Virus record (IMG/VR): IMGVR_UViG_3300014913_000007
Span: 1 to 64,000 of that record
Source: a virus
Direction: 5' to 3' (one strand)
Length of the DNA stretch: 64,000 nt
Shown here piece by piece: positions 1-38,436 of this stretch. Below the pieces are notes generated by a model that was not told the DNA's origin, did not search any database, and was given only the letters and a program-made list of their open reading frames with translations. Numbering within the stretch: the stretch's first letter is position 1; the number at the start of each line of letters is the position of its first letter. A program made the translations under genes and the position numbers.

Positions 1-22
1 AAGAGGTTATTATGATACTGTT

Positions 23-277
23 TTAACTACCCACCCCCACCTTCTCAATTAAAGACTCCTTCCATAGCTCTATTACCTGTCTAGCTTCATTTAGTTCTTC
101 TAATTGAATCCTGAATGAATCTTCTATCTCTCTAAAATCTTCTTCACAACAATAATCATTCTTGACATGATCTTCGTAACACACATTAAACTCCTCATGT
201 GCTGTTTGTAATACATTTTTAAGTAACTTATATTGTTCCTCTATTCTCCTCTGTGCTATAAATACTATACTACTCAT
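23..277 (-). CDS. hypothetical phage protein
   Basis: ORF in tightly packed minus-strand array, overlapping start/stop with upstream gene. Confidence 0.7.
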   Translation of the reverse strand: MSSIVFIAQRRIEEQYKLLKNVLQTAHEEFNVCYEDHVKNDYCCEEDFREIEDSFRIQLEELNEARQVIELWKESLIEKVGVGS

Positions 278-2456: not shown

Positions 2457-2483
2457 GTATCGTCATTATCTGGGAAAACTTTA
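2457..2483 (-). promoter_or_regulatory. sigma28-type promoter
   Basis: TAAAGTTT-N11-GACGATAC. Confidence 0.8.
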
Positions 2484-2546
2484 GAAGTAATCCGATTATT
2501 TATTGGCATGGTTCTTGCTAGATCTAGACCCCCGGCCACAAAAAAA
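2479..2546. repeat. ~68-bp intergenic direct repeat, copy 1 (copy 2 at 4140-4206)
   Basis: CTTTAGAAGTAATCCGATTATTTATTGGCATGGTTCTTGCTAGATCTAGACCCCCGGCCACAAAAAA present at both loci. Confidence 0.95.
2503..2527 (+). promoter_or_regulatory. sigma54 -24/-12 box with TAGATC tail
   Basis: TTGGCATGGTTCTTGCTAGATCTAG, GG-N10-GC spacing. Confidence 0.75.
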
Positions 2547-2575
2547 GCCCCATAGAACAATCATTCTACAGGGCT
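2540..2575 (-). terminator. intrinsic terminator
   Basis: AGCCCTGTAGAA/TTCTATGGGGCT hairpin followed by U-tract on minus strand. Confidence 0.8.
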
Positions 2576-2589
2576 AAAGAGGTAGTTAA

Positions 2590-3201
2590 TTATCTATTCA
2601 AAAATACCTTTCCATATTCTAGGTAAACATTCTCCTGTGCTTCTATATCTTCTCTTAAACACTCCTCACTCATAGCATAGTCCCACGCCTTCTCTAAGTC
2701 ACTATATAACTCAAGTGATAAGTTAGACCTGAATTCCTCTAATTCGTTCTCCAATTCCTTCAGTAACTTAAAAAGTCTAGGTGTATACCTCCTCCAGATA
2801 TTTGATTCTAAGGACAAGTCCCTAGTATTCTCATGTGAATAATGATTACCAAAATGATTAGTTAGTATGCTTGCTTCCATGCCTTCTGCTTCGATAAGTC
2901 TAATTAAGTGTCTATACTTCCCTTCTGGTAAGTTAGCGTGTTTAATGAATTCTTTCAGCTCTACGTTGGCATTAAAACTAGCTCCATCCCCTTGACTCCA
3001 AAATCCTGAGAATTGAATCTTAACATCATCCATGCCCATGCTCTCTAACTTCTCTTTCCAGTCATCTAGGGTACATTCAAAAATCCACTCACTGTCGTAC
3101 TGGCCTTTGGCTTCTCTTGCCTTTTCCAGTACCTTCTCCTGTGCTTCCTCTGTTAATTCCTCAAACTTATATGTTTCATATTTAATTGTTACTGTTTCCA
3201 T
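2590..3201 (-). CDS. acidic hypothetical phage protein
   Basis: 203-aa ORF, FSGFWSQGDGASF motif, GAGG SD, own promoter. Confidence 0.8.
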   Translation of the reverse strand: METVTIKYETYKFEELTEEAQEKVLEKAREAKGQYDSEWIFECTLDDWKEKLESMGMDDVKIQFSGFWSQGDGASFNANVELKEFIKHANLPEGKYRHLIRLIEAEGMEASILTNHFGNHYSHENTRDLSLESNIWRRYTPRLFKLLKELENELEEFRSNLSLELYSDLEKAWDYAMSEECLREDIEAQENVYLEYGKVFLNR

Positions 3202-3238
3202 AATTACCTCTTATAATTAAACAATCCTCTTATATAGT

Positions 3239-3265
3239 ATATCGTCAGATTCCCAGAAAACTTTA
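3239..3265 (-). promoter_or_regulatory. sigma28-type promoter
   Basis: TAAAGTTT-N11-GACGATAT. Confidence 0.8.
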
Positions 3266-3266
3266 A

Positions 3267-3803
3267 CTATTTCTTAGTAAGCTCCTCAATAGCTTCCTCT
3301 AATTCTTTCTTTGTTACCTCAATGTTTCCATGTACGATAGGTTTTTCAATTAAACATCCTTTTATATAATTCTGTAAAGCTCTAGCGTCTGATTGCATAT
3401 CATTCCACATATTCAGAATTTCCTTATCCTCCTGTGCTTCATGTACTTCACCATATATTAAATATACTACATCCTTACACTGTTCTGATTCTTTAGAAGT
3501 AGTTAATTCCTTTAGTAGTAGCTCCTCATCATCCACCTCTGAAAAATAGTCATATAGTATGTAATCTTTAACAATCTCCTCTACAGAAGGAATATTAGCC
3601 TCACTAAACTTATCTACAAAAGCTGTAGCCTTCTCTTTAGTGTTAAAGTCTGCTATACATGAAGCTAACCCTTCACTTGTTCTAAGGTACACACTGAACA
3701 TATCCGCATCTTTTTCATCACATACTGCCATACTTTCACAAGTATCGTGGTGTACTGCTTCTACTTCTATCTGTACTGTTATCTGTTTGGTATATAAACT
3801 CAT
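3267..3803 (-). CDS. hypothetical phage protein
   Basis: 178-aa ORF coupled to upstream gene. Confidence 0.75.
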   Translation of the reverse strand: MSLYTKQITVQIEVEAVHHDTCESMAVCDEKDADMFSVYLRTSEGLASCIADFNTKEKATAFVDKFSEANIPSVEEIVKDYILYDYFSEVDDEELLLKELTTSKESEQCKDVVYLIYGEVHEAQEDKEILNMWNDMQSDARALQNYIKGCLIEKPIVHGNIEVTKKELEEAIEELTKK

Positions 3804-4084
3804 AAAATATCCTCTGTTACAGTAGTCAGGTACTTATTAATAACATAGTATTCTTCTTTTTTTATTTCATCCATTGTAATTGCTTTTGCTATGATACAGC
3901 CACAATCAAACTCTGCCATGTTCTTTTCTTTGGCATCCCACCATTCTCCTTCACCTCTCCAATTCAATACTATAGCTTCTAGTACCTTATCAGCTAAATC
4001 CTTTGTTTCTTCTCTCATTAGAAAACTTGTGGTAAAGGAATACTCACCAGATGTTTCTTCAATTTTACAAAAATAATGTTTCAT
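3800..4084 (-). CDS. hypothetical phage protein
   Basis: GAGG SD and promoter upstream. Confidence 0.75.
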   Translation of the reverse strand: MKHYFCKIEETSGEYSFTTSFLMREETKDLADKVLEAIVLNWRGEGEWWDAKEKNMAEFDCGCIIAKAITMDEIKKEEYYVINKYLTTVTEDIL

Positions 4085-4117
4085 AGTACCTCTTTAATAA
4101 ATTAACTCTCACATATA

Positions 4118-4144
4118 CTATCGTCAGATCCCAGAAATACTTTA
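4118..4144 (-). promoter_or_regulatory. sigma28-type promoter
   Basis: TAAAGTAT-N11-GACGATAG. Confidence 0.75.
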
Positions 4145-4206
4145 GAAGTAATCCGATTATTTATTGGCATGGTTCTTGCTAGATCTAGACCCCCGGCCAC
4201 AAAAAA
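4140..4206. repeat. ~68-bp intergenic direct repeat, copy 2
   Basis: matches 2479-2546. Confidence 0.95.
4164..4188 (+). promoter_or_regulatory. sigma54 -24/-12 box with TAGATC tail
   Basis: TTGGCATGGTTCTTGCTAGATCTAG. Confidence 0.75.
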
Positions 4207-4230
4207 GACTGCACCATTTCTGGCACAGTC
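4201..4230 (-). terminator. intrinsic terminator
   Basis: GACTGTGCCA/TGGTGCAGTC hairpin plus U6 on minus strand. Confidence 0.8.
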
Positions 4231-4242
4231 TCCAAGAGGTTA

Positions 4243-4494
4243 TTATGATTGATCTGTTTTCTTTAATTTCAAAAATTCTTTCTTAAAACTGTCCATATCT
4301 GAGTCATTTACCCCATAACTAATTAAAGCAAAATCATCATCTATATACTCATAAACTAACTTTTCTACTTCATCTAAGTTATCACATTCAAGTAAATCGC
4401 TTACAGGTATCTTAGTTACTTGCTGTCCATTTCCTACAAATCCGTCCTCTATCGTCCAAAATATGGCTAAACCATAACCTTTTTCATTACTCAT
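4243..4494 (-). CDS. hypothetical phage protein
   Basis: ORF in array. Confidence 0.7.
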   Translation of the reverse strand: MSNEKGYGLAIFWTIEDGFVGNGQQVTKIPVSDLLECDNLDEVEKLVYEYIDDDFALISYGVNDSDMDSFKKEFLKLKKTDQS

Positions 4495-4503
4495 AAACTG
4501 TCC

Positions 4504-4932
4504 TTACCAGTATAAACCATTTACCTTAACTTGCTCATAAACATCCCTCTGAAGTTCTGAATAGCCCTCATCGGTATCTAACTCATAATCACTTAGTTCT
4601 ATACCTAAGTCATCTAAATCAAGGGCATCAATTCTTAGAATATCATGTTTATCTACTTTAATTTCCTCAGCATAAAGAGACATACACTCCCCAACCTCAT
4701 TCATAATAATATCGTCTATTTCTTCACGCCTCTCTTCTAATACTGAGTCCCAATCTTTATATTGTTGATCAAAAGTTATCCAGTCCAGTTCACAACTGGC
4801 TCTAATATCACACAGGTGTACTTTCCTGTTAACATCAACCAGAAAACTAGTTACTATCTTATCTAGTTCTGGCATATCTGTCATATTCCAATATCTCTCA
4901 TGCATATGTATTAACTTAAATTCCGGTTTCAT
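4504..4932 (-). CDS. acidic hypothetical phage protein
   Basis: GAGG SD, promoter upstream. Confidence 0.75.
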   Translation of the reverse strand: MKPEFKLIHMHERYWNMTDMPELDKIVTSFLVDVNRKVHLCDIRASCELDWITFDQQYKDWDSVLEERREEIDDIIMNEVGECMSLYAEEIKVDKHDILRIDALDLDDLGIELSDYELDTDEGYSELQRDVYEQVKVNGLYW

Positions 4933-4965
4933 AACTACCTCTAATTAATTTAGCCTCTATATTAT

Positions 4966-4992
4966 ATATCGTCGATATCTCAGAAAACTTTA
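4966..4992 (-). promoter_or_regulatory. sigma28-type promoter
   Basis: TAAAGTTT-N11-GACGATAT. Confidence 0.8.
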
Positions 4993-5228
4993 GCATCAAA
5001 TAATAAAAATTGCATCATTTCATCAGTTGTAGAACAATCCGTACAAGTTACCTCTGCACTGGGCGCACTGGCTCTAGTTACCTCCACCAAGTCCAGTATG
5101 ATGCCTTCACAGGTAAGGGTAACATCTAAATCAGACTCCTCTGTAATACCGTCTACAGGCTCCACCTCGTACCTAATTTTAACGTCATTCTGAAACTCTA
5201 CTTCTTTTCCATCTATAAATACTTTCAT
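4980..5228 (-). CDS. hypothetical phage protein
   Basis: GAGG SD. Confidence 0.7.
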   Translation of the reverse strand: MKVFIDGKEVEFQNDVKIRYEVEPVDGITEESDLDVTLTCEGIILDLVEVTRASAPSAEVTCTDCSTTDEMMQFLLFDAKVF

Positions 5229-5230
5229 AA

Positions 5231-5422
5231 TTACCTCTTGATTAGTTTATTAACCTTTGCAAACTTCTCAGGAAATCCTGGGAGACTATGCTTCAAAAAT
5301 TTATTCTCTTTTATGATACCTATTGCTTCCTTTAGTGCTTCTTTTTCAGTATTTGCTTTAACATTAGGAATCATTATATTATTGTGAGATCCTTGAGAAA
5401 TCATTACATTATATTTATTCAT
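5231..5422 (-). CDS. small protein, DpnD/PcfM-like paralogue
   Basis: MNKYNVMI...NVKANTEKEALKEA. Confidence 0.6.
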   Translation of the reverse strand: MNKYNVMISQGSHNNIMIPNVKANTEKEALKEAIGIIKENKFLKHSLPGFPEKFAKVNKLIKR

Positions 5423-5466
5423 AACTACCTCTTAAATAAATCAATTCGTTTATTATTATGTATATA

Positions 5467-5493
5467 TTATCGTCAATATATTAGAAAACTTTA
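5467..5493 (-). promoter_or_regulatory. sigma28-type promoter
   Basis: TAAAGTTT-N11-GACGATAA. Confidence 0.8.
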
Positions 5494-5501
5494 ATTATAA
5501 A

Positions 5502-5540
5502 TAATCTAATTCGTTTATTTAATATAATCTAATTGGATTA
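5502..5540. promoter_or_regulatory. tandem 16-bp palindromic operator-like sites
   Basis: TAATCTAATTCGTTTA (5502-5517) and TAATCTAATTGGATTA (5525-5540); further copies at 7261 and 10631-10853. Confidence 0.55.
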
Positions 5541-5563
5541 TAGATCTAGCAATAAACGTGCCA
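5541..5563 (-). promoter_or_regulatory. sigma54 -24/-12 box with TAGATC tail
   Basis: TGGCACGTTTATTGCTAGATCTA on minus strand. Confidence 0.75.
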
Positions 5564-5643
5564 TAAATAAAGTAATTGTATTATGATTGAAAAATAAATA
5601 ATGAAATAATTATTATAAACAATAAGCATACAAAAAACATAAC

Positions 5644-5832
5644 TTACTCCTTACTTTTAGCTATTACTCTAGCTATGCTCTCTACTATAAAAATAAATCC
5701 CATAGTTACAAAGGTACAAGCAATAGAATCACTACTCAACAAAGAACCAATACATACTAGTAACTGTCCTAATCTAAGCAGTCTATTTTCTATTGATACA
5801 CCTCTTACATACTCTACTAACTTCCTTAACAT
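5644..5832 (-). CDS. small membrane protein
   Basis: two hydrophobic segments; GGAG SD. Confidence 0.6.
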   Translation of the reverse strand: MLRKLVEYVRGVSIENRLLRLGQLLVCIGSLLSSDSIACTFVTMGFIFIVESIARVIAKSKE

Positions 5833-5836
5833 TAAA

Positions 5837-6079
5837 TTACTCCTTAACTAGTTTCTTCAAGACAGGAGGGATACAACCTAAAGTCTCCCAACATCTTTCT
5901 ATAAAGTTATCTCCTGCATCATTATAATCCAAGTAAGCATCAGGTACATTAATTTTATCTAGTACAGCTTCAGGATCTAATTCTTTAGGTATCTGTGTGA
6001 ATTGTTGATACCAGCCGTCCGAATCTGACTTCCTTATCTCACTAGTAATGAATTGTTTTCTTAACTCTTTAATATCCAT
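5837..6079 (-). CDS. hypothetical phage protein
   Basis: GAGGGG SD. Confidence 0.7.
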   Translation of the reverse strand: MDIKELRKQFITSEIRKSDSDGWYQQFTQIPKELDPEAVLDKINVPDAYLDYNDAGDNFIERCWETLGCIPPVLKKLVKE

Positions 6080-6232
6080 AAGTTACCCCTCTTTTCTACC
6101 TAATTCATCAAGTTGTTTTTCCATATGTTCTAAATTTTTTATAACGGTATTAAAACCAAACCACCACAGGGCAGCAATTAAACCTCCAATAATAAAAACG
6201 GTTGCCGTAAGGAAAATCACTGGTTCCATAAT

Positions 6233-6538
6233 TTAGCCCTTCAGACTCTTTATAAAATGAACACAGCACTCGTCCTCACTTACCTCTAAATCCTTCCTGA
6301 AGCCTCCCTGACCGCAAGCATCACATTCATAATAGATATGAAGCTTCATATCATCATCTACCAGACATACTTGAAAATCATCATTAACTAGGTAGACACT
6401 ACCTGACAGTTGATTAAAGTGGGGGCGTACTCCTTCGCTAGAGAATCCATCTGGTAAACCATTCTCTTTCATAGCTGTTAGGATGCTTATTAACTCCTCT
6501 AACTCTGTGTATCTATAATCCTCTAAGTTACTTGTCAT
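6233..6538 (-). CDS. hypothetical protein with CxxC motif
   Basis: GAGG SD, promoter upstream. Confidence 0.75.
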   Translation of the reverse strand: MTSNLEDYRYTELEELISILTAMKENGLPDGFSSEGVRPHFNQLSGSVYLVNDDFQVCLVDDDMKLHIYYECDACGQGGFRKDLEVSEDECCVHFIKSLKG

Positions 6539-6599
6539 AATTACCTCTAAAATAATTAATTGATTAATTGATTAATTGATTAATTCTCATATATACATA

Positions 6600-6626
6600 A
6601 TATCGACAGAATCTTGGAAAACTTTA
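6600..6626 (-). promoter_or_regulatory. sigma28-type promoter
   Basis: TAAAGTTT-N11-GTCGATAT. Confidence 0.8.
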
Positions 6627-6646
6627 GGTATTTTTATTTTTTTTCT

Positions 6647-6671
6647 CTAGATCTAGCAAATACCATGCCAA
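6647..6671 (-). promoter_or_regulatory. sigma54 -24/-12 box with TAGATC tail
   Basis: TTGGCATGGTATTTGCTAGATCTAG on minus strand. Confidence 0.75.
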
Positions 6672-6703
6672 AAACCCACTAGAGAAACTTTCCTCTAGCG
6701 GGT
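6670..6703 (-). terminator. intrinsic terminator
   Basis: ACCCGCTAGAGG/TCTCTAGTGGGT hairpin; U-tract runs straight into the sigma54 box. Confidence 0.8.
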
Positions 6704-6709
6704 AAAACA

Positions 6710-7126
6710 TTAATTAGAACGATAAATTACAAATCCGTCTAGTTCCTCGCATCCTCCATCATAAGAGTTAAGGAAGTGTCCAAGTCCATCGGCTGCTATA
6801 GCATCCTCTACAAGCTCCTCGAAGCTATCCCCTACCATTGACATAATAGCGTCATTAGCCCTCTCACATTGAGGCTGTAAGGCTTCTATAACCTCCTCCC
6901 CGACTCCATCAGGAAGGTAATCAACAATAAAATAAGCATTGAAAGCCCACAAGCTCTCTTTAATGTAAGCTGTAGCCTGTTCCTCTGCTTCCTCATCAGT
7001 AAGTACTGTATACTCTCCATTGTCTGTATCAAATACATTAACTGCATCGGATTCTGTTATATCAAAGGTTTCCAGATCCTCGCCCTCATCCTTGAAGAAT
7101 TTTTTAAGTATTTCTAAATTAGTCAT
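6710..7126 (-). CDS. highly acidic hypothetical protein
   Basis: D/E-rich, GHFLNSYDG motif; GAGG SD. Confidence 0.8.
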   Translation of the reverse strand: MTNLEILKKFFKDEGEDLETFDITESDAVNVFDTDNGEYTVLTDEEAEEQATAYIKESLWAFNAYFIVDYLPDGVGEEVIEALQPQCERANDAIMSMVGDSFEELVEDAIAADGLGHFLNSYDGGCEELDGFVIYRSN

Positions 7127-7291
7127 ACTAACCTCTCAAATGCTTTAAATAAATTGATGAATAACTCATCTATTGCGTCTAGCAATGCTAAAAACATATT
7201 ATCTACTGCACTTGTATTTATATTTATATTAACTTCTCTCATTTTAATTTACCTCTCAAATAATCTAATTCGTTTATTTCTTATATTAATA

Positions 7292-7318
7292 ATATCGCCA
7301 GATTCTCAAAATACTTTA
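7292..7318 (-). promoter_or_regulatory. sigma28-type promoter
   Basis: TAAAGTAT-N11-GGCGATAT. Confidence 0.7.
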
Positions 7319-7326
7319 GCTTTATT

Positions 7327-7731
7327 TTACATTTCTATGTTTGTAACTATACCTTCTTCTGCTACTTCTGGATCAACTTGACATACAGACAAGAACCCTG
7401 TAGAGAAATGAACATTAGTATGTTTTAAATATCCGGTAAATCTAAACTTACCATCAGAACCATGTAATAAAACACAGTCTAGGCGTTGGCCAGAGTCCTT
7501 ATCAGCTTTAATTTCCTCAAAGTCCTCCAGTGCGGTATCTTCTTCGTAAAGTCCTCCCTTATAACCTGTTAAGTCATATCTGAAGTCTGTAAGCTCATAT
7601 ACATCTAACTCTCTAGCTTTATCTGAAAAGAACTTAATCTTATCTAATAATTCAGCATCTACCTCTAATTCATAACAAAAGGTATCTGTAAAATCACTGT
7701 CCTCTATATGTAAGTTACCAATAATTTTCAT
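7327..7731 (-). CDS. acidic hypothetical protein, paralogue of 1980..2414
   Basis: shared motifs as above. Confidence 0.8.
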   Translation of the reverse strand: MKIIGNLHIEDSDFTDTFCYELEVDAELLDKIKFFSDKARELDVYELTDFRYDLTGYKGGLYEEDTALEDFEEIKADKDSGQRLDCVLLHGSDGKFRFTGYLKHTNVHFSTGFLSVCQVDPEVAEEGIVTNIEM

Positions 7732-7732
7732 A

Positions 7733-7945
7733 TTAACTCCTATCCTGGAAATCTTCTAAACCTTCTTCTAGAGTACTGAAATAATGCCCCCAGAAGTAAG
7801 AATCCTTATTACTATCATATACATGAGTAACATAAGGCTCACATCTGCCAGGGAAATGTCTTAATGTTACCTGACAGGATTGATCAACCTCATTCCATCT
7901 ATAGGGTTTACTAGCTACTACTTTATTTCCTTCTTTATCTTTCAT
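7733..7945 (-). CDS. hypothetical phage protein
   Basis: YFWGHYF motif; SD. Confidence 0.75.
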   Translation of the reverse strand: MKDKEGNKVVASKPYRWNEVDQSCQVTLRHFPGRCEPYVTHVYDSNKDSYFWGHYFSTLEEGLEDFQDRS

Positions 7946-7946
7946 A

Positions 7947-8174
7947 TTAATCCTCTTTAATACTTAAAATTTCCTGTAACTCTCTCAATATCCCATACCT
8001 TTCAGATACACTACTAGCAAAATTAGAACTGAATGGATTACCATGAAACTGATTTTTTCTAGCTCTCTTAATAGTCATTTCTAGGGTATCTATAATAGCT
8101 TTACATTCATACACATATTGCTTCAATTCCTGTTTATAACTCATTTCTACATATTCTTTAATTCTATTAGCCAT
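7947..8174 (-). CDS. hypothetical phage protein
   Basis: first gene of leftward array; weaker promoter TCAAGTAA-N11-GCCGATAT at 8205-8231. Confidence 0.7.
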   Translation of the reverse strand: MANRIKEYVEMSYKQELKQYVYECKAIIDTLEMTIKRARKNQFHGNPFSSNFASSVSERYGILRELQEILSIKED

Positions 8175-8249
8175 AATTCCACTTTAAATTTGGTTACACC
8201 TATAATATCGGCTGTATTCCATATTACTTGAGAACTAATCTAATTATTT

Positions 8250-8273
8250 TTGGCATGAAACTTGCTAGATCTA
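8250..8273 (+). promoter_or_regulatory. sigma54 -24/-12 box with TAGATC tail
   Basis: TTGGCATGAAACTTGCTAGATCTA. Confidence 0.75.
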
Positions 8274-8289
8274 AGTTTTGGGCTTATCT

Positions 8290-8313
8290 TAGATCTAGCA
8301 ATAAGTGTGCCAA
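8290..8313 (-). promoter_or_regulatory. sigma54 -24/-12 box with TAGATC tail (faces previous box)
   Basis: TTGGCACACTTATTGCTAGATCTA on minus strand. Confidence 0.75.
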
Positions 8314-8331
8314 AGTTATTTAAAATAAGCC

Positions 8332-8358
8332 TTAAGTTTTCAAATAAGATGCCGATAC
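8332..8358 (+). promoter_or_regulatory. sigma28-type promoter
   Basis: TTAAGTTT-N11-GCCGATAC. Confidence 0.7.
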
Positions 8359-8496
8359 TGTAATCAGGATACTAATTTTTATTAACGATAGGAATTTATG
8401 GATATTCCATATAATACAATTTTACCACCATAACCAACAACTTACAAGATAATCTACTGATATGAATACACTCTTTCTGTGTAAGAGCATGTCCTT

Positions 8497-8583
8497 AGAA
8501 TGAGCGTTCATTTTAGTGCATTGGCACGATTCTTGCTAGATCAACTAGAATGAATACTCACTCTAAAATGAGCGTTCATTTTT
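8497..8583. repeat. cluster of AATGA-N4-TCATT palindromes flanking a sigma54 box
   Basis: AATGAGCGTTCATT twice and AATGAATACTCACT once. Confidence 0.7.
8521..8542 (+). promoter_or_regulatory. sigma54 -24/-12 box (full consensus)
   Basis: TTGGCACGATTCTTGCTAGATC. Confidence 0.8.
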
Positions 8584-8875
8584 AAAACAAACATTCCTTT
8601 TACTTTACATACGTCCCAAGACGAGCTGTAGTAGGGATTTCCGAAAATACCCTGGGAGTTTCTACACTACCCCTTCCTAATACAAATGGCCTCTCGGCGC
8701 TGTGAGAATCTGTGATATCATACATAGAAGAGACACCCACCCCTAGCTGTCTTAAAACCTTTATTCGCTAAACCTATGCTTTGAAGATCAAAAGATCGCT
8801 GAAGTTTATAGTTGAGGGCCTAAAAGTCGCTAATCTCGTACTTGTTGGGCCTAAGAAGTCGCTGACTTGAATTAA

Positions 8876-8930
8876 TTTAGGGGAGTAATTATTTGCTTTG
8901 CAAATAATTCTACTTTTATATTAGTACAAT
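8876..8930. repeat. hairpin-containing repeat, copy 1 (copy 2 at 9803-9855)
   Basis: AATTATTTGC-NNN-GCAAATAATT followed by CTAC..ATATTAGTACAAT. Confidence 0.85.
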
Positions 8931-8934
8931 TCAG

Positions 8935-9216
8935 TTATACAAATCGTGCAATAAACCAGGTTCTTAGATATTCATCTCTAGAAACTGATAGGTAACAGTG
9001 TTCAAGGCTAGTAAACCTCTGTATAAAATTGTACTTCTGAATGAAGTTTTTCAGGTGAACCGGGGCCACATGGTAATATCCTCCATAACCTTTGTAGAAT
9101 AGTAAATACTTCTTTCCTTCTTCAAGATCATCCACATCCATAGAATTTTCTACATAGTAATACTTATATACTGCTGCACTTATGTCATATACGTCTTGTA
9201 AGATCTGATAATTCAT
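8935..9216 (-). CDS. small paralogue family member (GK-x-YLL...Y-x-x-x-WF)
   Basis: LEEGKKYLLF...EYLRTWFI; start chosen for coupling to upstream stop. Confidence 0.7.
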   Translation of the reverse strand: MNYQILQDVYDISAAVYKYYYVENSMDVDDLEEGKKYLLFYKGYGGYYHVAPVHLKNFIQKYNFIQRFTSLEHCYLSVSRDEYLRTWFIARFV

Positions 9217-9497
9217 ATATACCTTACCAAAAACCAACATTCACCATAATTACGTAATTCGAACGTAGCTATGCTAAAAGGTCTCTCATTATTAATACCT
9301 CTAAACTTCAAATCTCTACTAAGATGTCCTAGGCCGTCATAGACAACTCTTGCTACTCTATATGTACTTCGTTTTTGAGAGAGGCCATGAAAAATACAAA
9401 CCACATATAAATAAGTCTGCCCTACTTGAAGAGTGTCACTTACAGTGTTTAATGCTTTAGTAACTAAATAATCACCTATCTTGTTGGATACTTCCAT
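9213..9497 (-). CDS. small paralogue family member
   Basis: LQVGQTYLY...NYGECWFL. Confidence 0.7.
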   Translation of the reverse strand: MEVSNKIGDYLVTKALNTVSDTLQVGQTYLYVVCIFHGLSQKRSTYRVARVVYDGLGHLSRDLKFRGINNERPFSIATFELRNYGECWFLVRYI

Positions 9498-9499
9498 AC

Positions 9500-9772
9500 T
9501 TACATGAACCTCATAATGAACCAATTAATATTATGTCCTCTCAGTGGTAAATAACCAGGTCTTGATGCATTAAGATACCACATTGCTCCATCACATACAT
9601 GGCTAATATAAATTTCGTCCACTATGTAAGAAAGGCCATAGTAAGAAAAGAGTAAGCATTCCTTGCCTTCGAGTTCTTTCCAAAAATCTGCGGGGAGAGT
9701 ATCAACAAGATCTCCTAATTGATAAGTAGCCTTCTTTTGATAATACTTAAACGTTTCCGTAGTTATCTTCAT
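9500..9772 (-). CDS. small paralogue family member, leaderless
   Basis: LEGKECLLF...NWFI; ATG 7 nt after GCCGATAC. Confidence 0.75.
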   Translation of the reverse strand: MKITTETFKYYQKKATYQLGDLVDTLPADFWKELEGKECLLFSYYGLSYIVDEIYISHVCDGAMWYLNASRPGYLPLRGHNINWFIMRFM

Positions 9773-9779
9773 AGTAGCA

Positions 9780-9806
9780 GTATCGGCAGTTTGCCAGGAA
9801 ACTTTA
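9780..9806 (-). promoter_or_regulatory. sigma28-type promoter
   Basis: TAAAGTTT-N11-GCCGATAC. Confidence 0.8.
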
Positions 9807-9855
9807 GGGGTAATTATTTGCTCCGCAAATAATTCTACCTTAATATTAGTACAAT
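9803..9855. repeat. hairpin-containing repeat, copy 2
   Basis: AATTATTTGCTCCGCAAATAATT. Confidence 0.85.
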
Positions 9856-9859
9856 CGGG

Positions 9860-10186
9860 TCAAATAACCTCAACAAATATCCATTTCTTACCGTAGTGGT
9901 GTTCCTTTAAGCACATATCATGCTTTCCTGTTCCATATACTCCTGTCCAGTATTCCAGGCCGTGGCCAGCGAAGACTATTGGGTCCGTCTTCCACACTGT
10001 AACTATAGCAAGCACTACTATCTGGTCCTCAGGGGCGGGATCTTCCCAAGCTCCGTACCCTAAGTCATTAACAAGTAAGTACTTCTTATGTAACTTAATA
10101 TCCTCCAGACGTACCCTACTATCATTGAGGCTACGGATGAATCTCTTTATTGAATCGTTCTTTTGATATTCCTTACAATATGGCAT
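9860..10186 (-). CDS. small paralogue family member, leaderless
   Basis: HKKYLLV...HYGKKWIF; promoter TAAAGTTA-N12-GCCGATAC at 10194-10221, ATG 7 nt later. Confidence 0.75.
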   Translation of the reverse strand: MPYCKEYQKNDSIKRFIRSLNDSRVRLEDIKLHKKYLLVNDLGYGAWEDPAPEDQIVVLAIVTVWKTDPIVFAGHGLEYWTGVYGTGKHDMCLKEHHYGKKWIFVEVI

Positions 10187-10234
10187 ATATACAGTATCGG
10201 CATCGGGCGGGAATAACTTTAGTTATTTCTTTTT

Positions 10235-10258
10235 TTGGTATGCTTTTTGCTAGATCTA
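10235..10258 (+). promoter_or_regulatory. sigma54 -24/-12 box with TAGATC tail
   Basis: TTGGTATGCTTTTTGCTAGATCTA. Confidence 0.7.
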
Positions 10259-10579
10259 CAGCCAAGCCATAGAGAATTTAATAGATAGAGAAGAAGCTCC
10301 TATTCTATACATAGTTACACTTATTGAATTTAAAGTAGTATTGCCACTATTAAAGAAATACCTGTTATTTGGCGTAGTTGGATGTTCAAGTCTATAAAAA
10401 TCCACGCTGGGAACGAAAACACCTGTATCTGAATGGTCAACAGTTAATATAAACTGATTAGGTACTGCACCTTTATTATGATTCATAGTATATACAACAT
10501 TATTTCCACCTGTAAGTACCGGATGCGTATATGTGCTAGATGTAAAACTTGTTACGCCTTCATTAGTTAGTCTAATCAT
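10256..10579 (-). CDS. beta-rich protein, paralogue of 16196..16519 (possible virion/tail-associated)
   Basis: MIRL.NE...FTSS...HP...NHN.G shared; GGAG SD. Confidence 0.7.
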   Translation of the reverse strand: MIRLTNEGVTSFTSSTYTHPVLTGGNNVVYTMNHNKGAVPNQFILTVDHSDTGVFVPSVDFYRLEHPTTPNNRYFFNSGNTTLNSISVTMYRIGASSLSIKFSMAWL

Positions 10580-10941
10580 TTTATAACTCCTGGTTAAATG
10601 TGTGTCTACTAAATATAAAGTACATTCAAATAAACCAATTGAATTATTATCTATAGTTTATTTAGTATATGTCCACTTGTAAAGGATGATAGTCCATAGA
10701 TAAATAATGTAATTCGATTATTATATAACAATAACTCAATTAGATTATAAATATAAATAAAGGAACTCGATTATTTATGTAAGTGGCTATATTCATTACG
10801 TAGAAACAGGTAAGTATATTATATATGTCAGATAAAATAATGTAATTCGATTATTATAGATTATAATGAAATTAAGCTGTAAAATACGGAAGATATATAA
10901 CTATATCAGATAGTTAAGTACAATATAACAATTCAAATGTA

Positions 10942-11193
10942 TTATAAGTAATTGAGCACGTACCAAGTCTCTAGATAGTTATCTGTTTTGAACTCGGAAA
11001 AGGTAGCCTTATCAGTATTTAAGACTCTTACACGAGTGCAGGTAGCTCCTGGCGACCAGCTTCGTAACTCCAGGTTACAGATCCTCACTATTCTCTCACC
11101 TGAGTCATGCTTGGTGAACAGTGTATACTTCTTACCACGACTTAGGCTTTTTAGGTTCAATGCCTTAGATGCATATGCGCTGAAATTTCCCAT
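10942..11193 (-). CDS. small paralogue family member, leaderless (true start 11193)
   Basis: LSRGKKYTLF...NYLETWYV; promoter at 11201-11227 ends 7 nt before this ATG. Confidence 0.75.
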   Translation of the reverse strand: MGNFSAYASKALNLKSLSRGKKYTLFTKHDSGERIVRICNLELRSWSPGATCTRVRVLNTDKATFSEFKTDNYLETWYVLNYL

Positions 11194-11200
11194 ACTATTA

Positions 11201-11227
11201 GTATCGGCACAATTCACATAAACTTTA
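11201..11227 (-). promoter_or_regulatory. sigma28-type promoter
   Basis: TAAAGTTT-N11-GCCGATAC. Confidence 0.8.
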
Positions 11228-11253
11228 GCTATTTTCTTACAAAAATCTTCTAA

Positions 11254-11277
11254 TAGATCTAGCAAGAACCATGCCAA
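11254..11277 (-). promoter_or_regulatory. sigma54 -24/-12 box with TAGATC tail
   Basis: TTGGCATGGTTCTTGCTAGATCTA on minus strand. Confidence 0.75.
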
Positions 11278-13656: not shown

Positions 13657-13745
13657 GGGCTACCTCTATGTAGTATTTAATTAACTCAGTATAATAAGTG
13701 TGTTAGGTGTAGAATCTCTCCTGTAGGCCCGGCCCTCTTTTTTGC

Positions 13746-13772
13746 TAAAGTTATTTAAAAATATGCCGATAT
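13746..13772 (+). promoter_or_regulatory. sigma28-type promoter
   Basis: TAAAGTTA-N11-GCCGATAT. Confidence 0.8.
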
Positions 13773-13779
13773 ACTAGAT

Positions 13780-14007
13780 ATGACAAATTGGGATGACGAA
13801 AAGGAGTGTTTAAAAGCTGTTAAAGAAAATGGATGGGCTTTACAGTATGTAAAAAATCAAACTCCAGAAATCTGCTTGGCTGCTGTTAAAGAGGATGCAG
13901 ATGCTTTACGATATGTAAAAACAGTGAATTGTTCCTACGAATTAAAAAATTATGTTTTAAATAACTTAAGGGAGGACCTAATCAAAACTTACCCTTCACA
14001 AATTTGA
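13780..14007 (+). CDS. DUF4116-like repeat protein, leaderless
   Basis: AVKENGWALQYVKNQTPEICLAAVK repeat. Confidence 0.8.
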   Translation: MTNWDDEKECLKAVKENGWALQYVKNQTPEICLAAVKEDADALRYVKTVNCSYELKNYVLNNLREDLIKTYPSQI

Positions 14008-20701: not shown

Positions 20702-23242
20702 CTATATTTTTGAATGCTTAGAATACTTCTTTTCATAGAACTCTTTTCTGCCCTCTGACCAATCTCTAAGCTTATTATTGGGATTTGAATCATCGGTATA
20801 GTCTATTACTACTGCGTACTTCTTTTCAACTGTGAATCTTAGTACTCTACCCACTGTTTGCTCAATACGGGTAGTATTCCCTCCACTGAAAGGTCCAGCC
20901 AGTATTAATGCACTTAAGCTGGGACAATCAAAGCCAGTATCAAACAAAGTATATGTACCACCAATTCCAGCTAGCTCCCCACTTTCAACTTTAAATACGT
21001 CTTCATTTAGTTGTTTATGGTTTACTTTAGTTTGTATAGCTCCCTTGTCTGTAGTTTTAATAGTGTAGGGATAAGATATGTGGATACCACGTTCTAACAA
21101 TTTTTCATATATTATTTTAGCGTGAAGAACCCTAGCGGTACATATGATAGGTTTAAAACCCATACTAATTAACCTTACACAGTCATCTACGATTAAGTTA
21201 TTTCTGACCTCATTGTTACATACCTCGTCTTGCAACTTGTGCATTTTCTTTCTTTTTCGCCACTCTTCCATACTATCTGTAACATCATAGAAAAAAGTAT
21301 TTCCAGTTTCTCTGGTATAAGTTTCTGGTGTTAGTCTTCCAGGAATTTGATTCTCATGTATAGTTACTACAATTTCCCCTAGTAAGGCTGTCATTAGATT
21401 ACTAAGTTCATCACTGGAGTAATGTTCAGGTGTGGCAGACAGTCCATATAATCTTTCAGGAGCCAACTTTAACAGTACAGTTCTATATGTCAATGCAGTA
21501 CTTAAATGACATTCATCAAAAAATATCGTATGAAAAGTATCCTTTAGTGAATCTAAGTCAAATCCTTCCTTGCCTAGTGTCATAAGTGATCCACATGTAA
21601 TAGGTTTAATGATCTTTTTCTTTGCTTTTATTATACCTATTTCTTCATCTGGTATTCCTAATACTTTAGTTACTGTCCTTCTAAATTGAGTTAACAGTCT
21701 ATCCTTCTGTGCTAAAAATAATACTGGACCTTTACCAAGTAACGCCATTGCTATACAAGAAATTACAGTTTTACCACTATTGTGATGTACTGTAAAGTCT
21801 TCTGTTAAATATAGATGATCTTTGTTTAACATGAAACCATAATAGGATCCTTCACCTACTGATTCTACTTTGAATCCAGTCCTTAGCACAGACTTCTTTT
21901 GTTTTCTAGGTACTGCTTGTTTTCTTTTAATTCTTGTAGGTATAATTGAAACTTCACCAGAAATAGAAAGTCTATAGTACTCAACTTGATTTACTATTTT
22001 GATATTTTTATATGCAGCTAAGCCTAAGGATCTTGCTATGAAAGTTATATCGTCTGCCAATCTTTCTGATTTTGACACATATTCAAAGTTTCCATTACCG
22101 AAGTACCCATCAGTATCTATTAATCCAGCTAGGATTTTCAATCTCTCACTATTAGATGCTTTCTTATAAATCTCTGGTATAAACCTGGTGCCACTTTTTG
22201 TTCCCCAAAGATTTAAGTTTTTTAATCTATCTATTAATAGGTTATGTCCTGGGATCCCTGTTTTTATACCTTTTAAACTAGACTTAAAGAAGTAAGTTTT
22301 AGCTTTACCAGTATTAGCATCCTGAATGCTATTTTGGATCAAACAATGCTGTCTGCATAGATCATTAAACATCTTTACTATCTCTTCATCAGCTGTAGTT
22401 ATACTACCTTGACGACAAATTCCTCCATCTCCAAGTAATACACCTAAATGGTAAGGATCTATAGGTAAGGAAGTTGGTAGTTCTTTAAAATTTATTGCTG
22501 CCCTTTTTAGTTTATAATGATGTTTAAAACTATTTGATTTGTCCAAGTAATCATTTACAGAGATATTAATAGTTGTACCTTTAAGTTTTATGTATTTACA
22601 CATATCAACGCCTTTTAGTATTTTCGGCTGTGGGTCTTCTCTTCTGATGCCAGATTGCTCAAGATGAAGTACATGAGATTTATTTACTACAAATGGAGTG
22701 CCTTTTGTTGGTGTAATCTTATACATCTCTTCTTCACCTGAAAATAATTTAAGTACTTCTCTAGGTTTACTATCAGGACCCATTAAAAGGTCTCCAATCT
22801 GTATTTTTTCTACTTTTTTTAGTGTACCATTATACATTAGTATCTCAGTGCCAGGTGCATGGCATCCTGGAGGAGCTTGTATTCTAGCAGTATTATATTG
22901 TAAAAGTTTATTTACCGCATCTCCTTGAAATCCGAATACACCACTTGTATAATTAATTTTTTCAGAAATACTTGATGGAACATTCTCACCAGAGCTTGTA
23001 CTAAAGGTTTTAGTTACGGGTAAGTTATTCTGTGAACACACTCTAATAAGCTCTAACTCTTTTCCACGAGGAATGTAGATAGAATTACCTTCTTTTTTAA
23101 ATAAGTGTAATTTTTCTGGTATTCCTTTATCTTTATTTGCATAAGGTGTTATGTCATAGGTACAGACTGACTTGAAATACTCTTCTAGGTTTGGAGGTAA
23201 TCCTGTGATTCTTAAGCAATTAGATAAATCATAAGAGATCAC
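20702..23242 (-). CDS. superfamily 2 (UvsW/XPB-like) helicase with intein
   Basis: APPG|SGKT split Walker A, DECH, SAT, QTVGRVLR. Confidence 0.9.
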   Translation of the reverse strand: MISYDLSNCLRITGLPPNLEEYFKSVCTYDITPYANKDKGIPEKLHLFKKEGNSIYIPRGKELELIRVCSQNNLPVTKTFSTSSGENVPSSISEKINYTSGVFGFQGDAVNKLLQYNTARIQAPPGCHAPGTEILMYNGTLKKVEKIQIGDLLMGPDSKPREVLKLFSGEEEMYKITPTKGTPFVVNKSHVLHLEQSGIRREDPQPKILKGVDMCKYIKLKGTTINISVNDYLDKSNSFKHHYKLKRAAINFKELPTSLPIDPYHLGVLLGDGGICRQGSITTADEEIVKMFNDLCRQHCLIQNSIQDANTGKAKTYFFKSSLKGIKTGIPGHNLLIDRLKNLNLWGTKSGTRFIPEIYKKASNSERLKILAGLIDTDGYFGNGNFEYVSKSERLADDITFIARSLGLAAYKNIKIVNQVEYYRLSISGEVSIIPTRIKRKQAVPRKQKKSVLRTGFKVESVGEGSYYGFMLNKDHLYLTEDFTVHHNSGKTVISCIAMALLGKGPVLFLAQKDRLLTQFRRTVTKVLGIPDEEIGIIKAKKKIIKPITCGSLMTLGKEGFDLDSLKDTFHTIFFDECHLSTALTYRTVLLKLAPERLYGLSATPEHYSSDELSNLMTALLGEIVVTIHENQIPGRLTPETYTRETGNTFFYDVTDSMEEWRKRKKMHKLQDEVCNNEVRNNLIVDDCVRLISMGFKPIICTARVLHAKIIYEKLLERGIHISYPYTIKTTDKGAIQTKVNHKQLNEDVFKVESGELAGIGGTYTLFDTGFDCPSLSALILAGPFSGGNTTRIEQTVGRVLRFTVEKKYAVVIDYTDDSNPNNKLRDWSEGRKEFYEKKYSKHSKI
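21779..22864 (-). mobile_element. intein with LAGLIDADG homing endonuclease (362 aa)
   Basis: N-term CHAPGT, C-term VHHN|S, motifs LGVLLGDGG and LAGLIDTDG. Confidence 0.92.
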
Positions 23243-35945: not shown

Positions 35946-37133
35946 ATGACAGTTTTTAAGTTTAAAAAAGACAATATGAAAGTCCCATGTTTTATATGGC
36001 ACAATATGCGAACTTTTGATAAACAGGCATTGCAGCAAATAATTACTGCATCTAAATTACCTTTCATATTCCATCACACCTGTGTAATGGCTGACGGGCA
36101 CAAAGGGTATTCATTACCTATAGGAGGCGTAGTGGCCTGCTTAGGAGTAGTGTCTCCAGCTATGGTAGGTTTCGACCAAGGATGCGGTATGTTAGCTGTG
36201 AAAACAGGAATAAAGATTACTGAATTGAATAGAGAACTGTTAATTCGAATAAAAAAGTTAATAGAAACCCATGTTCCAGTAGGATTAGGTACTTATAACC
36301 AAACTCCACAGGAGTGGGAGGGATTTAACAATACACCAGATGATGTGGTAATTCAGAAACAACTACAATCTGCACGTTTCCAGTTGGGATCACTTGGATC
36401 GAATAATCACTTTTTAGAGATACAATCAGGTTCTGATGGTTACATTTGGTATATGATTCACTCTGGAAGTAGAAATCTAGGACATAAAGTAGCTACCCAC
36501 TACAACAAACTGGCCTTAAATTTAAATAAAAAATGGCATTCAGATATAAAAAGATTAAAAGGTGATGAACCTATGTCTTTCTTACCAGTAGACACTCAAG
36601 AAGGAGTGGATTTTATAACAGCTCTAGATTTTACATTAAAGTTCGCTCAAGCTAGTAGAGAGAATATGTCTAATAAGATTCAAGGTTGTATTACACAGGT
36701 ACTTAAATGTACATTTGAAAAACCTATAAATATACACCATAACTATGCAGCTCTAGAGAATCATTATGGTAAAAACGTTTGGGTACATCGGAAAGGGGCT
36801 ACTTCTGCTAAGAAAGGGCAATTGGGAATCATACCTGGATCTCAAGGCACTAAATCTTTTATAGTTAGAGGAAAGGGAAGTCAGGAGTCATTCACTTCCT
36901 GTAGTCACGGAGCTGGGAGAATTCTTGGAAGAAAGAAAGCAAAACAAACACTAAAGTTAAATGAAGAGTTGAAATTACTAGAAGATAAGGGAATCTTACA
37001 TTCAATAAAATCCAAGGCTAACTTGGATGAGTCACCTTCCGCTTACAAAGACATAGATATAGTCATGAAAGCGCAAAAAGACTTGGTAGATATAGTTGTA
37101 GAATTATCCCCTTTAGCAGTAGTTAAGGGCTAA
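35946..37133 (+). CDS. rtcB: RNA-splicing/repair ligase RtcB
   Basis: DGH.G...PIG, D.GCG, GS.NHF.E, HSGSR, HHN, HRKGA, SHGAGR, DESP.AYK. Confidence 0.95.
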   Translation: MTVFKFKKDNMKVPCFIWHNMRTFDKQALQQIITASKLPFIFHHTCVMADGHKGYSLPIGGVVACLGVVSPAMVGFDQGCGMLAVKTGIKITELNRELLIRIKKLIETHVPVGLGTYNQTPQEWEGFNNTPDDVVIQKQLQSARFQLGSLGSNNHFLEIQSGSDGYIWYMIHSGSRNLGHKVATHYNKLALNLNKKWHSDIKRLKGDEPMSFLPVDTQEGVDFITALDFTLKFAQASRENMSNKIQGCITQVLKCTFEKPINIHHNYAALENHYGKNVWVHRKGATSAKKGQLGIIPGSQGTKSFIVRGKGSQESFTSCSHGAGRILGRKKAKQTLKLNEELKLLEDKGILHSIKSKANLDESPSAYKDIDIVMKAQKDLVDIVVELSPLAVVKG

Positions 37134-37134
37134 T

Positions 37135-37317
37135 TTAATCTGAAACATCCTCAAAGCAAGTACATTGATAATACAAACTTGGATCTACCTCTCCAGTTTC
37201 TTCGTTATACATCCAGGGCCTACCAACTTCTTTTGGGTATCCACATTTTTCACATTTATCTAGATAGCCAAAGAATACAACACTATTGTATAACTTAGTC
37301 AAAAATAATTTTATCAT
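37135..37317 (-). CDS. small Cys-containing protein, leaderless
   Basis: TGaTATACT 6 nt before ATG. Confidence 0.6.
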   Translation of the reverse strand: MIKLFLTKLYNSVVFFGYLDKCEKCGYPKEVGRPWMYNEETGEVDPSLYYQCTCFEDVSD

Positions 37318-37335
37318 TAACTTAGTATATCAGAG

Positions 37336-38040
37336 TTAAGCTAGAGGATCAACTGCTATGTCCATTGCTGCCTCTGTGATAGTTTCTAAAACTCTCATAC
37401 AATTACCAAGCTTTTTAGCTCTTAGACATTCCTCTACTTCTCGTAATTTATTACTGAAGTTTATAAATCCTAAGGTTCCAGTAAATCCTATTAAACTATG
37501 AGTTAACCTTGCTGCTTTATCCCAATTACCTAAATCTACTGCCCTTCTGATTCTATACAGTTCAGTAGGTAAGTCCTCCTTACGAAGGTTTATAAGTTCT
37601 ATAAGTTTTTCAGGTAGATTATCAAGGTCTCCAGAGGTTGCATAGGTACATACTGTAAGATTCTTAGGCTCTACTTCAAGTTGCGGGAAGGCAGTTTTTA
37701 GAACTTCAAATAAATTCTTGTTTTCTAAAGGTTTATTTAGTACACCAGTAAATCCACGCTTTAGGTACTTTTTATTATCCAACTCAGCGGTCCAAGCTAT
37801 TATAGGACTAGTAACTCCTGCTTTTTTAGAGGCTCTTACTACACTTTCACCTGATGCGCCTCCTAATTGTAAGTCTACAAATGCTATGTCAAACTGTTTA
37901 GTAACTAACTGTTCTAATGCTTCTTTTGCGTTATCCACTTCCATTACTAAGGCCCCCATAGCACTTAGACGTTCTTCTAGGACGACCCTATTTACTTCGA
38001 TATCGTCTACTATTAGTACTCTCTTGTCATCTATTCGCAT
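37336..38040 (-). CDS. response-regulator receiver + HPt protein, leaderless
   Basis: VLIVDD, FVDLQL, WTA, NKP receiver motifs; HSLIG HPt motif; promoter at 38048-38075. Confidence 0.85.
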   Translation of the reverse strand: MRIDDKRVLIVDDIEVNRVVLEERLSAMGALVMEVDNAKEALEQLVTKQFDIAFVDLQLGGASGESVVRASKKAGVTSPIIAWTAELDNKKYLKRGFTGVLNKPLENKNLFEVLKTAFPQLEVEPKNLTVCTYATSGDLDNLPEKLIELINLRKEDLPTELYRIRRAVDLGNWDKAARLTHSLIGFTGTLGFINFSNKLREVEECLRAKKLGNCMRVLETITEAAMDIAVDPLA

Positions 38041-38115
38041 AAGTATAGTATCGACAGCTTTGAAAAAAAACTTTAGATGTTTGTAAAAATTAATTTAATG
38101 ATGTATACTAAAAGT

Positions 38116-38397: not shown

Positions 38398-38436
38398 ATA
38401 GCTAAAGCTTTAGAGGGTCAGCGACGATATACTGGT

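Follow-up and report, generated by a model that had tools for sequence, protein, structure and literature searches.

Sigma-54-type boxes with a palindromic tail at the transcription-unit boundaries of a large uncultured phage

We describe here an array of short repeated boxes in a large, uncultured phage with 33% G+C, represented by the IMG/VR record IMGVR_UViG_3300014913_000007 (153,389 bp). The window analysed is the first 64 kb of this record, and the array was followed from there onto an adjoining contig. Judged by their sequence, the assignment of the boxes as -24/-12 elements of the type recognized by sigma-54 is well supported. Each box carries a palindromic tail, and all stand at boundaries between transcription units in a block of small genes. 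As a tentative explanation, held with less than even confidence, we propose that they are poised, enhancer-less sigma-54 promoters, most of which would fire backwards on a common trigger, or else boundary blocks.

Sequence, extent and neighbours of the boxes

Nine matches to the pattern TGGYA-N6-TTGCTAGATC are present in the window, at 2504-2524(+), 4165-4185(+), 5543-5563(-), 6650-6670(-), 8251-8271(+), 8292-8312(-), 8522-8542(+), 10236-10256(+) and 11256-11276(-), and all of them have 0 mismatches though 2 were allowed. Shuffling of the window gives a mean expectation of 0.28 boxes, and nine were never reached. Zero further boxes were found in the rest of the record, where the other sigma-54-like words agree with the consensus at 10/12 positions, which is the chance level; the nine are confined to 11.3 kb. 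A preliminary description of this stretch had listed nine boxes with GG-N10-GC spacing, and all nine were recovered as exact matches, its starts being off by 1-3 nucleotides (nt). It had also called all of them intergenic, and this holds, box 10236 overlapping a stop codon by one base and box 11256 lying upstream of the real start (11193) of an over-extended open reading frame (ORF).

The motif was aligned over 26 copies, taken from this phage and from the contigs L174, L179 and L172, and reads tT-TGG(C/T)A(T/C)(G/A)-N4-TTGCTAGATCTA. TGG, A, TTGC and the GG-N10-GC frame are invariant in all 26 copies, and a T mostly precedes them. Apart from the AT-rich spacer, only -23 and -21 (C/T each) and -20 (G/A) vary, with GG and GC exactly 10 nt apart in 9/9 copies of the window and in 26/26 when the related contigs are included. 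Compared with the extended sigma-54 consensus YTGGCACGr-N3-TTGCW, each copy agrees at 11-12 of the 12 defined positions. Salmonella sigma-54 sites supported by chromatin immunoprecipitation vary in the same way, as seen for STM2360 TGGCATGCCTTTTGCTTT, hypA TGGCATAAATATTGCTTT and gltI TGGCACGTCTATTGCTTT, and the specified positions of the phage boxes are identical to those of the top Salmonella sites (PMC3844500). The possibility that the box is a sigma-70-type or MotA-type element was considered too and could be ruled out, as there is no conserved -10 at a suitable distance.

It should be noted that the conservation does not end at TTGC. Eight more invariant bases follow, which form the palindrome TAGATCTA; this contains GATC, covers -11 to -4 in sigma-54 numbering and thereby overlies the stretch that must melt in sigma-54 initiation. 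The tail had earlier been given as TAGATC and as lying outside the sigma-54 consensus. The second point stands, while the conserved part is longer than assumed and comprises TTGCTAGATCTA with the palindrome inside it. Below, boxes of the array type, with the TAGATCTA tail, are called class II, and two tail-less boxes on the neighbouring contig are called class I.

Scanning metagenomes with a more stringent pattern brought up contigs that hold several boxes, among them L177 (12,454 bp). Its first 123 positions are the exact reverse complement of window 1-123, and the junction between the two is crossed at 100% identity by an ENA contig of 93,961 bp and by a Logan contig from run SRR6478754. Because two independent assemblies join the window to L177, the left end of the window is no more than a break in the assembly. 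This adjoining contig contributes ten further boxes, for a total of 19 over ~18.7 kb, from L177:7439 to window 11276, and the next ~11 kb past the array hold no further class II box. The array is thus internal to the genome. The earlier statement that there are no boxes beyond 11.3 kb is correct for the record, whereas the array does not stop at the left edge of the window. We see no support for the suggestion that the boxes separate early units at the end of the genome that enters first: the record is broken off here by the assembly, the array lies inside the genome, and the units use a class of sigma-28-like promoter that could be read by host FliA or by a sigma factor of the phage. In IMG/VR, a first pattern scan returned single chance matches only, among the matches listed, and a stricter pattern returned two chance matches, both in coding sequence. 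As a side observation, GenBank lists L177/L187 as QMYV01000002.1, contig 2 of the metagenome-assembled genome GCA_003662835.1; this bin may consist of, or be contaminated by, the phage described here, and no mention of the assembly was found in the literature.

We now turn to the variation between related contigs. L179 represents a variant form of window 7276-8656 with about 75-81% identity, some 77% across the aligned part, and contains a convergent pair of boxes (8251 and 8292 in the window). Both blocks of each box are kept there letter for letter, while the inner spacers differ in most positions (TGAAA vs CACTT, AAGTG vs TATCA). Blocks kept at fixed spacing while the spacers differ argue for selection on the two blocks and not for the copying of a repeat. 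As to the conservation of position and tail, which the preliminary description had raised as a check, the tail is invariant in the 26 copies and the arrangement of this pair is kept in L179.

These data bear on the possibility that the boxes are recombination handles, like the PeSLs of T4-type phages, in which case a repeated linker would serve the exchange, duplication and loss of units and the conservation would reflect copying. The combination of a stem-loop and a strong promoter between small family-less genes does match PeSLs (PMC2839356). Contig L174 has the same linkers, with four boxes and the same promoter type, around unrelated genes that are dissimilar to those of this phage, and box 8522 is present in the window and absent in L179, where extra repeat units stand. 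Moreover, the modules 2454-2545 and 4115-4206 are 92-nt duplicates with 90% identity (repeat family D5). However, copying keeps contiguous identity, whereas here the blocks are invariant and four to six inner bases vary along with the flanks. A length of 21-23 bp is also short for homologous exchange, and the sole clear difference in gene content between the window and L179, a 134-amino-acid gene at 7327-7731, is not at a box. We therefore regard this explanation as highly improbable.

Two -24/-12 elements with a different tail, TGGCATATACCTTGCTCTATAAG (TGGCATATACCTTGCT), lie at L177:7555 and 8260, 115 nt past the last box of the array. These class I boxes sit in a 54-nt exact repeat, and the region around them, L177:7465-8330, equals L186:5783-6650. 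Both are directed at genes, one gene starting ~2 nt after the predicted start site and the other lying behind a normal ribosome site. Near them, neither a sigma-28-like promoter nor a gene-directed sigma-70-type promoter was found. The word TTGCRTAGT occurs just four times in 16.8 kb, two per class I box and 70-113 nt upstream of it (-96 to -139), compared with 0.27 expected by shuffles, of which 0/500 reach four. The spacing of the words differs between the two boxes, and they lie outside the 54-nt repeat. The pairs are thus candidate enhancer sites. This layout of enhancer plus promoter next to the array suggests that sigma-54 polymerase is indeed used to transcribe phage genes, together with a site-specific activator that presumably comes from the host.

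The adjacency of the class I promoters raises our estimate that the 19 array boxes bind sigma-54 polymerase as well, which we now consider probable. The sigma-54 reading of the preliminary description thus gains support from the sequence, from the tolerated variation, from the two blocks over a free spacer and from the classical promoters nearby. The array boxes nevertheless form a distinct class, because they have no enhancer and carry the palindromic tail, unlike class I. Two further features of sigma-54 promoters, a gene target and an enhancer ~70-150 bp upstream, are found at the two class I boxes and not at most array boxes, and for this reason we classify the latter as sigma-54-type binding sites and not as established promoters.

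Placement at unit boundaries

The boxes lie in a block of ~19 kb with small genes of no known family, all of which are leftward in the window. About a dozen copies of the sigma-28-like promoter TAAAGTTTTCTGAGAATCTGMCGATA, with the core TAAAGTTT-N11-GCCGATA, drive this block. Some 30 copies are found in window 1-53250, plus one at record position 153176, and their spacer is conserved too, while sigma-70-type promoter matches are not enriched in 1-13 kb. The phage encodes a divergent sigma-70-family protein (47391-48488), and the gene itself carries a sigma-70-type promoter. The phage sigma, rather than the host FliA, may therefore read the sigma-28-like class.

Boxes are found solely where one unit gives way to the next, with a terminator on one side and a sigma-28-like promoter on the other (Table 1). 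Five internal sigma-28-like promoters that have no upstream terminator, at 1119, 3240, 4967, 7293 and 9781, also have no box. Two arrangements can be distinguished. In type A, where the box is reversed, the order is hairpin, T-run, 14-18 nt that are often GC-rich, TAGATCTAGCAA...TGCCA, 18-21 A/T-rich nt and TAAAGTTT. The 18-21 nt gap from box to -35 is kept in 11 of the 14 reversed modules despite differing spacer sequences. In type S, where the box is forward, the order is hairpin, T-run, 0-1 nt, TGGCA..., 23-72 nt and promoter. In total, 13 of the 19 boxes point against the genes and 6 point with them.

Several of these relations had been recognized before: boxes facing antisense, which is confirmed for 2504, 4165 and 10236; two boxes facing each other, which are 8251 and 8292 with 20 bp between the box ends; and the three minus-strand boxes 5543, 6650 and 11256 upstream of a promoter with the sigma-28-type core given above. 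What had been overlooked is that the plus-strand boxes adjoin such promoters too, back to back with them and with a gap of ~19-20 nt. For each box of the convergent pair, which is located between two divergent promoters, one promoter is back to back and the other in tandem, and this arrangement is conserved in L179. Downstream of the reversed boxes there is no ORF with a ribosome-binding site, and small antisense ORFs were considered there as well, but none exist. At three boundaries sigma-28-like promoters fire against the genes, each of them preceded by a box.

Table 1. Class II boxes of the window with the neighbouring terminators and promoters
Feature	Position	Strand	Details
Class II box TGGCATGGTTCTTGCTAGATCTA, type A, reversed relative to leftward genes	2504..2526	+	T-run end 15 nt off; 20 nt to -35
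Intrinsic terminator of the unit of gene 2590-3201	2546..2575	-	13-bp stem + T7, -18.1 kcal/mol
Sigma-28-like promoter TAAAGTTTTCCCAGATAATGACGATA for gene 1980-2414	2458..2483	-	
Class II box, type A, reversed, in 92-nt duplicate of 2454-2545	4165..4187	+	
Intrinsic terminator upstream of box 4165	4201..4230	-	-17.8 kcal/mol, T6
Sigma-28-like promoter back to back with box 4165, gap 20 nt	4119..4144	-	
Class II box, type S	5541..5563	-	49 nt upstream of promoter 5468-5493; two ATAATC-N6-GATTAT between
Class II box, type S	6648..6670	-	abuts T-run of terminator 6671-6702 (-20.4 kcal/mol, distance 0); 23 nt to promoter 6601-6626
Class II box, left of convergent pair	8251..8273	+	19 nt from leftward promoter 8206-8231, back to back; 60 nt to 8332-8357
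Class II box, right of convergent pair	8290..8312	-	19 nt, back to back with rightward promoter 8332-8357
Rightward sigma-28-like promoter TTAAGTTTTCAAATAAGATGCCGATA, heads gene-free conserved unit	8332..8357	+	
Class II box, deviant end TAGATCAA	8522..8542	+	no adjacent promoter; gene-free; AATGAGCGTTCATT palindromes at 8499-8512, 8567-8580
Class II box TGGTATG..., reversed	10236..10258	+	starts at stop of gene 10256-10579; no hairpin terminator; 14 nt to promoter 10195-10221
Class II box, type S, right array end	11254..11276	-	28 nt upstream of promoter 11202-11227

A different protein could also be the reader. In this scenario, a phage protein or another host protein would recognize the 23-bp word, mainly TTGCTAGATCTA, as an operator of these promoters, either as a repressor or as an activator centred near -64, and the likeness to a -24/-12 element would be incidental. 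The strictest invariance is indeed in TTGCTAGATCTA with its 8-bp palindrome, which goes beyond what sigma-54 requires, and the reversed boxes are at about -74 to -54 of the neighbouring promoter, the usual position of an activator. The block is rich in small proteins without known family, which are possible binders, and more operator-like palindromes are found in the same linkers. On the other hand, the agreement at 11-12/12 sigma-54 positions, with exact spacing and a natural pattern of substitutions, is very unlikely to be due to chance, and standard sigma-54 promoter architecture is present nearby in the same phage. Against an operator it also speaks that the left block, TGGYAYR, forms no palindrome with the right one. 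The forward boxes are 23-72 nt from the promoter, a variable distance without fixed activator geometry, and box 8522 has no promoter to control. Such a binder as the only reader is, in our judgement, unlikely.

Some further observations concern the linkers themselves. A second operator-like palindrome family, ATAATC-N6-GATTAT / TAATC-N-GATTA, occurs between box and promoter in several modules; its positions in the window are 2488-2498, 4149-4159, 5501-5541, 7260-7277 and 10630-10854, with a cluster of five copies in the gene-free 10.6-10.9 kb. A tiny hydrophobic ORF, 5584-5640 (-), MFFVCLLFIIIISLFIFQS, which has a good ribosome-binding site, is found immediately upstream of box 5543. At the right end of the array, promoter 11202-11227 starts gene 10942-11193 almost at the ATG.

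The stretch 8175-8934 is free of genes over 760 bp and is headed by the rightward sigma-28-like promoter 8332-8357. Within it there are a 15-nt palindrome TATGGATATTCCATA, tandem units of ~17 nt of the form AATGA..TCATT, and the conserved word GTAGTAGGGATTTCYGAAAATACCCT, which recurs at the opposite end of the array, behind a promoter that fires backwards (L186:5560-5705). This stretch may be a small non-coding RNA unit. A search of Rfam gave no known RNA in 1-13 kb, and the folding of the gene-free 8545-8760 is unremarkable on both strands.

Candidate roles and the phage background

To our knowledge, no bacterial holoenzyme other than sigma-54 polymerase waits on the DNA until an ATP-driven trigger arrives. 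Sigma-54 holoenzyme forms a stable and silent closed complex that persists until an AAA+ activator remodels it, and activators without a DNA-binding domain act on any sigma-54 promoter (PMC3844500, PMC4591121).

In the mechanism that we favour, host sigma-54 holoenzyme would dock at the boxes in the boundary modules, each composed of terminator, box and sigma-28-like promoter. Each box would hold a silent closed complex in the only stretches between units over which transcription does not pass. These complexes would then be turned into firing promoters by a trigger. This could be an activator acting from solution, a second reader of TAGATCTA, or both, and as second reader one may consider a phage protein or GATC methylation by the Dam-type enzyme of the phage, which would gate opening. 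From two thirds of the boxes, transcription would run back through the unit that precedes, so that antisense RNA and head-on interference shut this unit down, and one third would fire forwards as a second, conditional promoter. Complexes that are not triggered would at least be boundary blocks.

Some elements of this proposal follow from the layout. As the terminator-to-promoter gaps alone would spare a parked complex from being swept, placement at boundaries is expected under any binding model. The fixed distances, specific for each orientation, suggest that direction matters, and the sigma-28-like promoters that fire against genes at three boundaries indicate that antisense output is already built in. 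The invariant tail over the melting region, finally, suggests that there is a second reader. A decoy, a roadblock and an antisense switch would all fit the restriction to boundaries and the lack of a gene behind the reversed boxes.

A number of points weigh against poised promoters. The 13:6 split is not significant compared with an even one (binomial p = 0.17) and suits orientation-free binding equally well. For the antisense strand no terminator was found, so that the length of a backward transcript is undefined. The 19 boxes share no upstream repeat that could be an enhancer, which in most bacteria means that they would be silent. The phage does not appear to bring its own machinery: the 153-kb record has no match to the sigma-54 DNA-binding domain (Sigma54_DBD) and no enhancer-binding ATPase, the Sigma54_activat match being only sub-threshold and in a Clp-type ATPase, and the GAFTGA motif is absent from every frame. 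The larger ORFs tested on the neighbouring contig belong to no Pfam family, and no phage-encoded activator was found among them. Both RpoN and its activator would presumably be supplied by the host. Moreover, since sigma-54 needs no invariant TAGATCTA, the site may be read by another protein, in place of sigma-54 or along with it.

The enhancer-less state of the boxes and the even-handed orientation statistics also lead to the alternative that the sites are passive, with polymerase bound and never firing. It would then be a roadblock or insulator that backs the terminators and shields the promoters and, after replication, perhaps a sponge for the small sigma-54 pool that mutes the sigma-54 responses of the host. 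The strict placement in untranscribed boundary DNA, where a bound complex stays, is consistent with this, as is box 10236, which stands where a terminator hairpin is missing, and sigma-54 holoenzyme is known for stable silent complexes and for many non-promoter sites (PMC3844500, PMC4591121). A decoy, however, needs no fixed distances, yet those to promoter and terminator are tight and depend on orientation. Strong intrinsic terminators are already present in the units, 19 strong sites would compete with the two sigma-54 promoters of the phage itself, and the invariance of the palindrome is left unexplained. Purely passive sites seem to us rather unlikely, and poised promoters remain our preferred, if tentative, explanation.

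One can speculate on a more general form of this idea, in which phages of several unrelated lineages would use the silently binding sigma-54 polymerase as a programmable boundary element. Consensus boxes would be combined with a lineage-specific second motif (here TAGATCTA with GATC) in the untranscribed gaps between accessory units. A further signal, be it a phage factor, the methylation of parental versus new DNA or a stress-activated host activator, would flip all of them from insulators to backward promoters and erase the early programme. We consider it doubtful that the idea holds in this generality.

Concerning the genome as a whole, the record encodes a family A DNA polymerase, a DnaB-like protein, a UvsX-like protein, a ribonucleotide reductase, an RNA-repair set (RtcB, a CCA-adding enzyme, an RNA ligase and RlaP), ribosomal protein S2 and a hybrid histidine kinase. 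The RNA-repair cluster is located near the kinase and S2 genes, at 35946-46650 (+) and 42024-42908 (+). There is also a Dam-type methyltransferase; among proteins of known structure it is closest to DpnM and E. coli Dam, both of them GATC enzymes. Over the whole record, GATC and AGATCT occur at the expected frequencies, and CpG tetramers are strongly depleted (CGCG 0.05, GCGC 0.17, TCGA 0.35 and ACGT 0.44 of expectation). An intein with a LAGLIDADG endonuclease interrupts a helicase gene at 20702-23242 (-). A credible Pfam family was found for 0/26 proteins tested in and beside the block, save one DUF4116 repeat protein just outside it. Genes of the DUF4116 type are repeated with identical promoters at window 13745-13921 and 53209-53600 and at record 153158-153389; because the right end of the record interrupts one of these copies, that end is an assembly break too.

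The relationships of the phage and its host were also considered. The GenBank phage collection contains no close relative by DNA, and the protein matches are too distant for placement; a query of IMG/VR with the polymerase gave no match. In two distant relatives, found via the sigma-like protein (44% identity), both the box and the sigma-28-like promoter are absent. Ribosomal protein S2, queried against species genomes with the host in mind, gave only matches of 30-40% identity, and the homologues of the histidine kinase are scattered over many phyla and do not point to a host. Canonical TTGACA-N17-TATAAT promoters precede many phage genes, whose ribosome sites are strong (AAGAGGT(G/A)AT; AAGAGGTGAT). 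A weak Atlas lead to Campylobacterota as host was rejected as a poor fit with these promoters and AAGAGGTGAT ribosome sites.

Comparison with known systems

In the literature we found no description of such arrays of sigma-54 boxes. The use of sigma-54 by phages is itself barely documented, and the sole example found among the papers that were searched is a single promoter of Pseudomonas phage YuA. As cited in PMC10914365 (from Ceyssens et al. 2008), this virulent phage has a mapped sigma-54-type promoter, so phages can depend on host sigma-54. The YuA promoters, as far as that account describes them, are single and gene-directed, with neither a two-orientation boundary array nor a palindromic tail.

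With bacterial sigma-54 promoters, such as those of Salmonella STM2360, hypA, gltI and pspA (PMC3844500), the phage boxes share the core TGGCAYR-N4-TTGCT, the GG-N10-GC spacing and the tolerated changes. They differ in that they have no enhancer, that two thirds of them point at no gene and that TAGATCTA is invariant, whereas the bacterial promoters vary over -11 to -4 (commonly TTGCTTT). In addition, the phage record encodes neither sigma-54 nor an activator. Another comparison is with those sigma-54 sites of E. coli and Salmonella that lie within genes or in antisense orientation, which, like the array, are not placed to start genes and for which repression, transcriptional interference and antisense or small RNAs have been proposed (PMC4591121; PMC3844500). 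Those sites are scattered, mostly within genes and weaker, while the phage sites are of consensus strength, strictly intergenic and arrayed at every boundary between units, with fixed distances to a terminator and a promoter.

The PeSL cassettes of T4-type phages (Arbiol et al. 2010, PMC2839356) have in common with the array a repeated stem-loop and strong promoter, small family-less genes and a plastic region. Their promoters are of the sigma-70 type and they contain no sigma-54 element, whereas here the promoter is sigma-28-like and the box is inserted between stem-loop and promoter. None of the compared systems unites consensus boxes, a fused palindrome, boundary-only placement and both orientations. 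Taken together, 19 sites of consensus strength and two enhancer-equipped promoters imply that the phage puts the sigma-54 polymerase to a deliberate second use, be it as switch, insulator or sponge, and the boxes could yield compact, orthogonal insulator or switch parts for synthetic biology.

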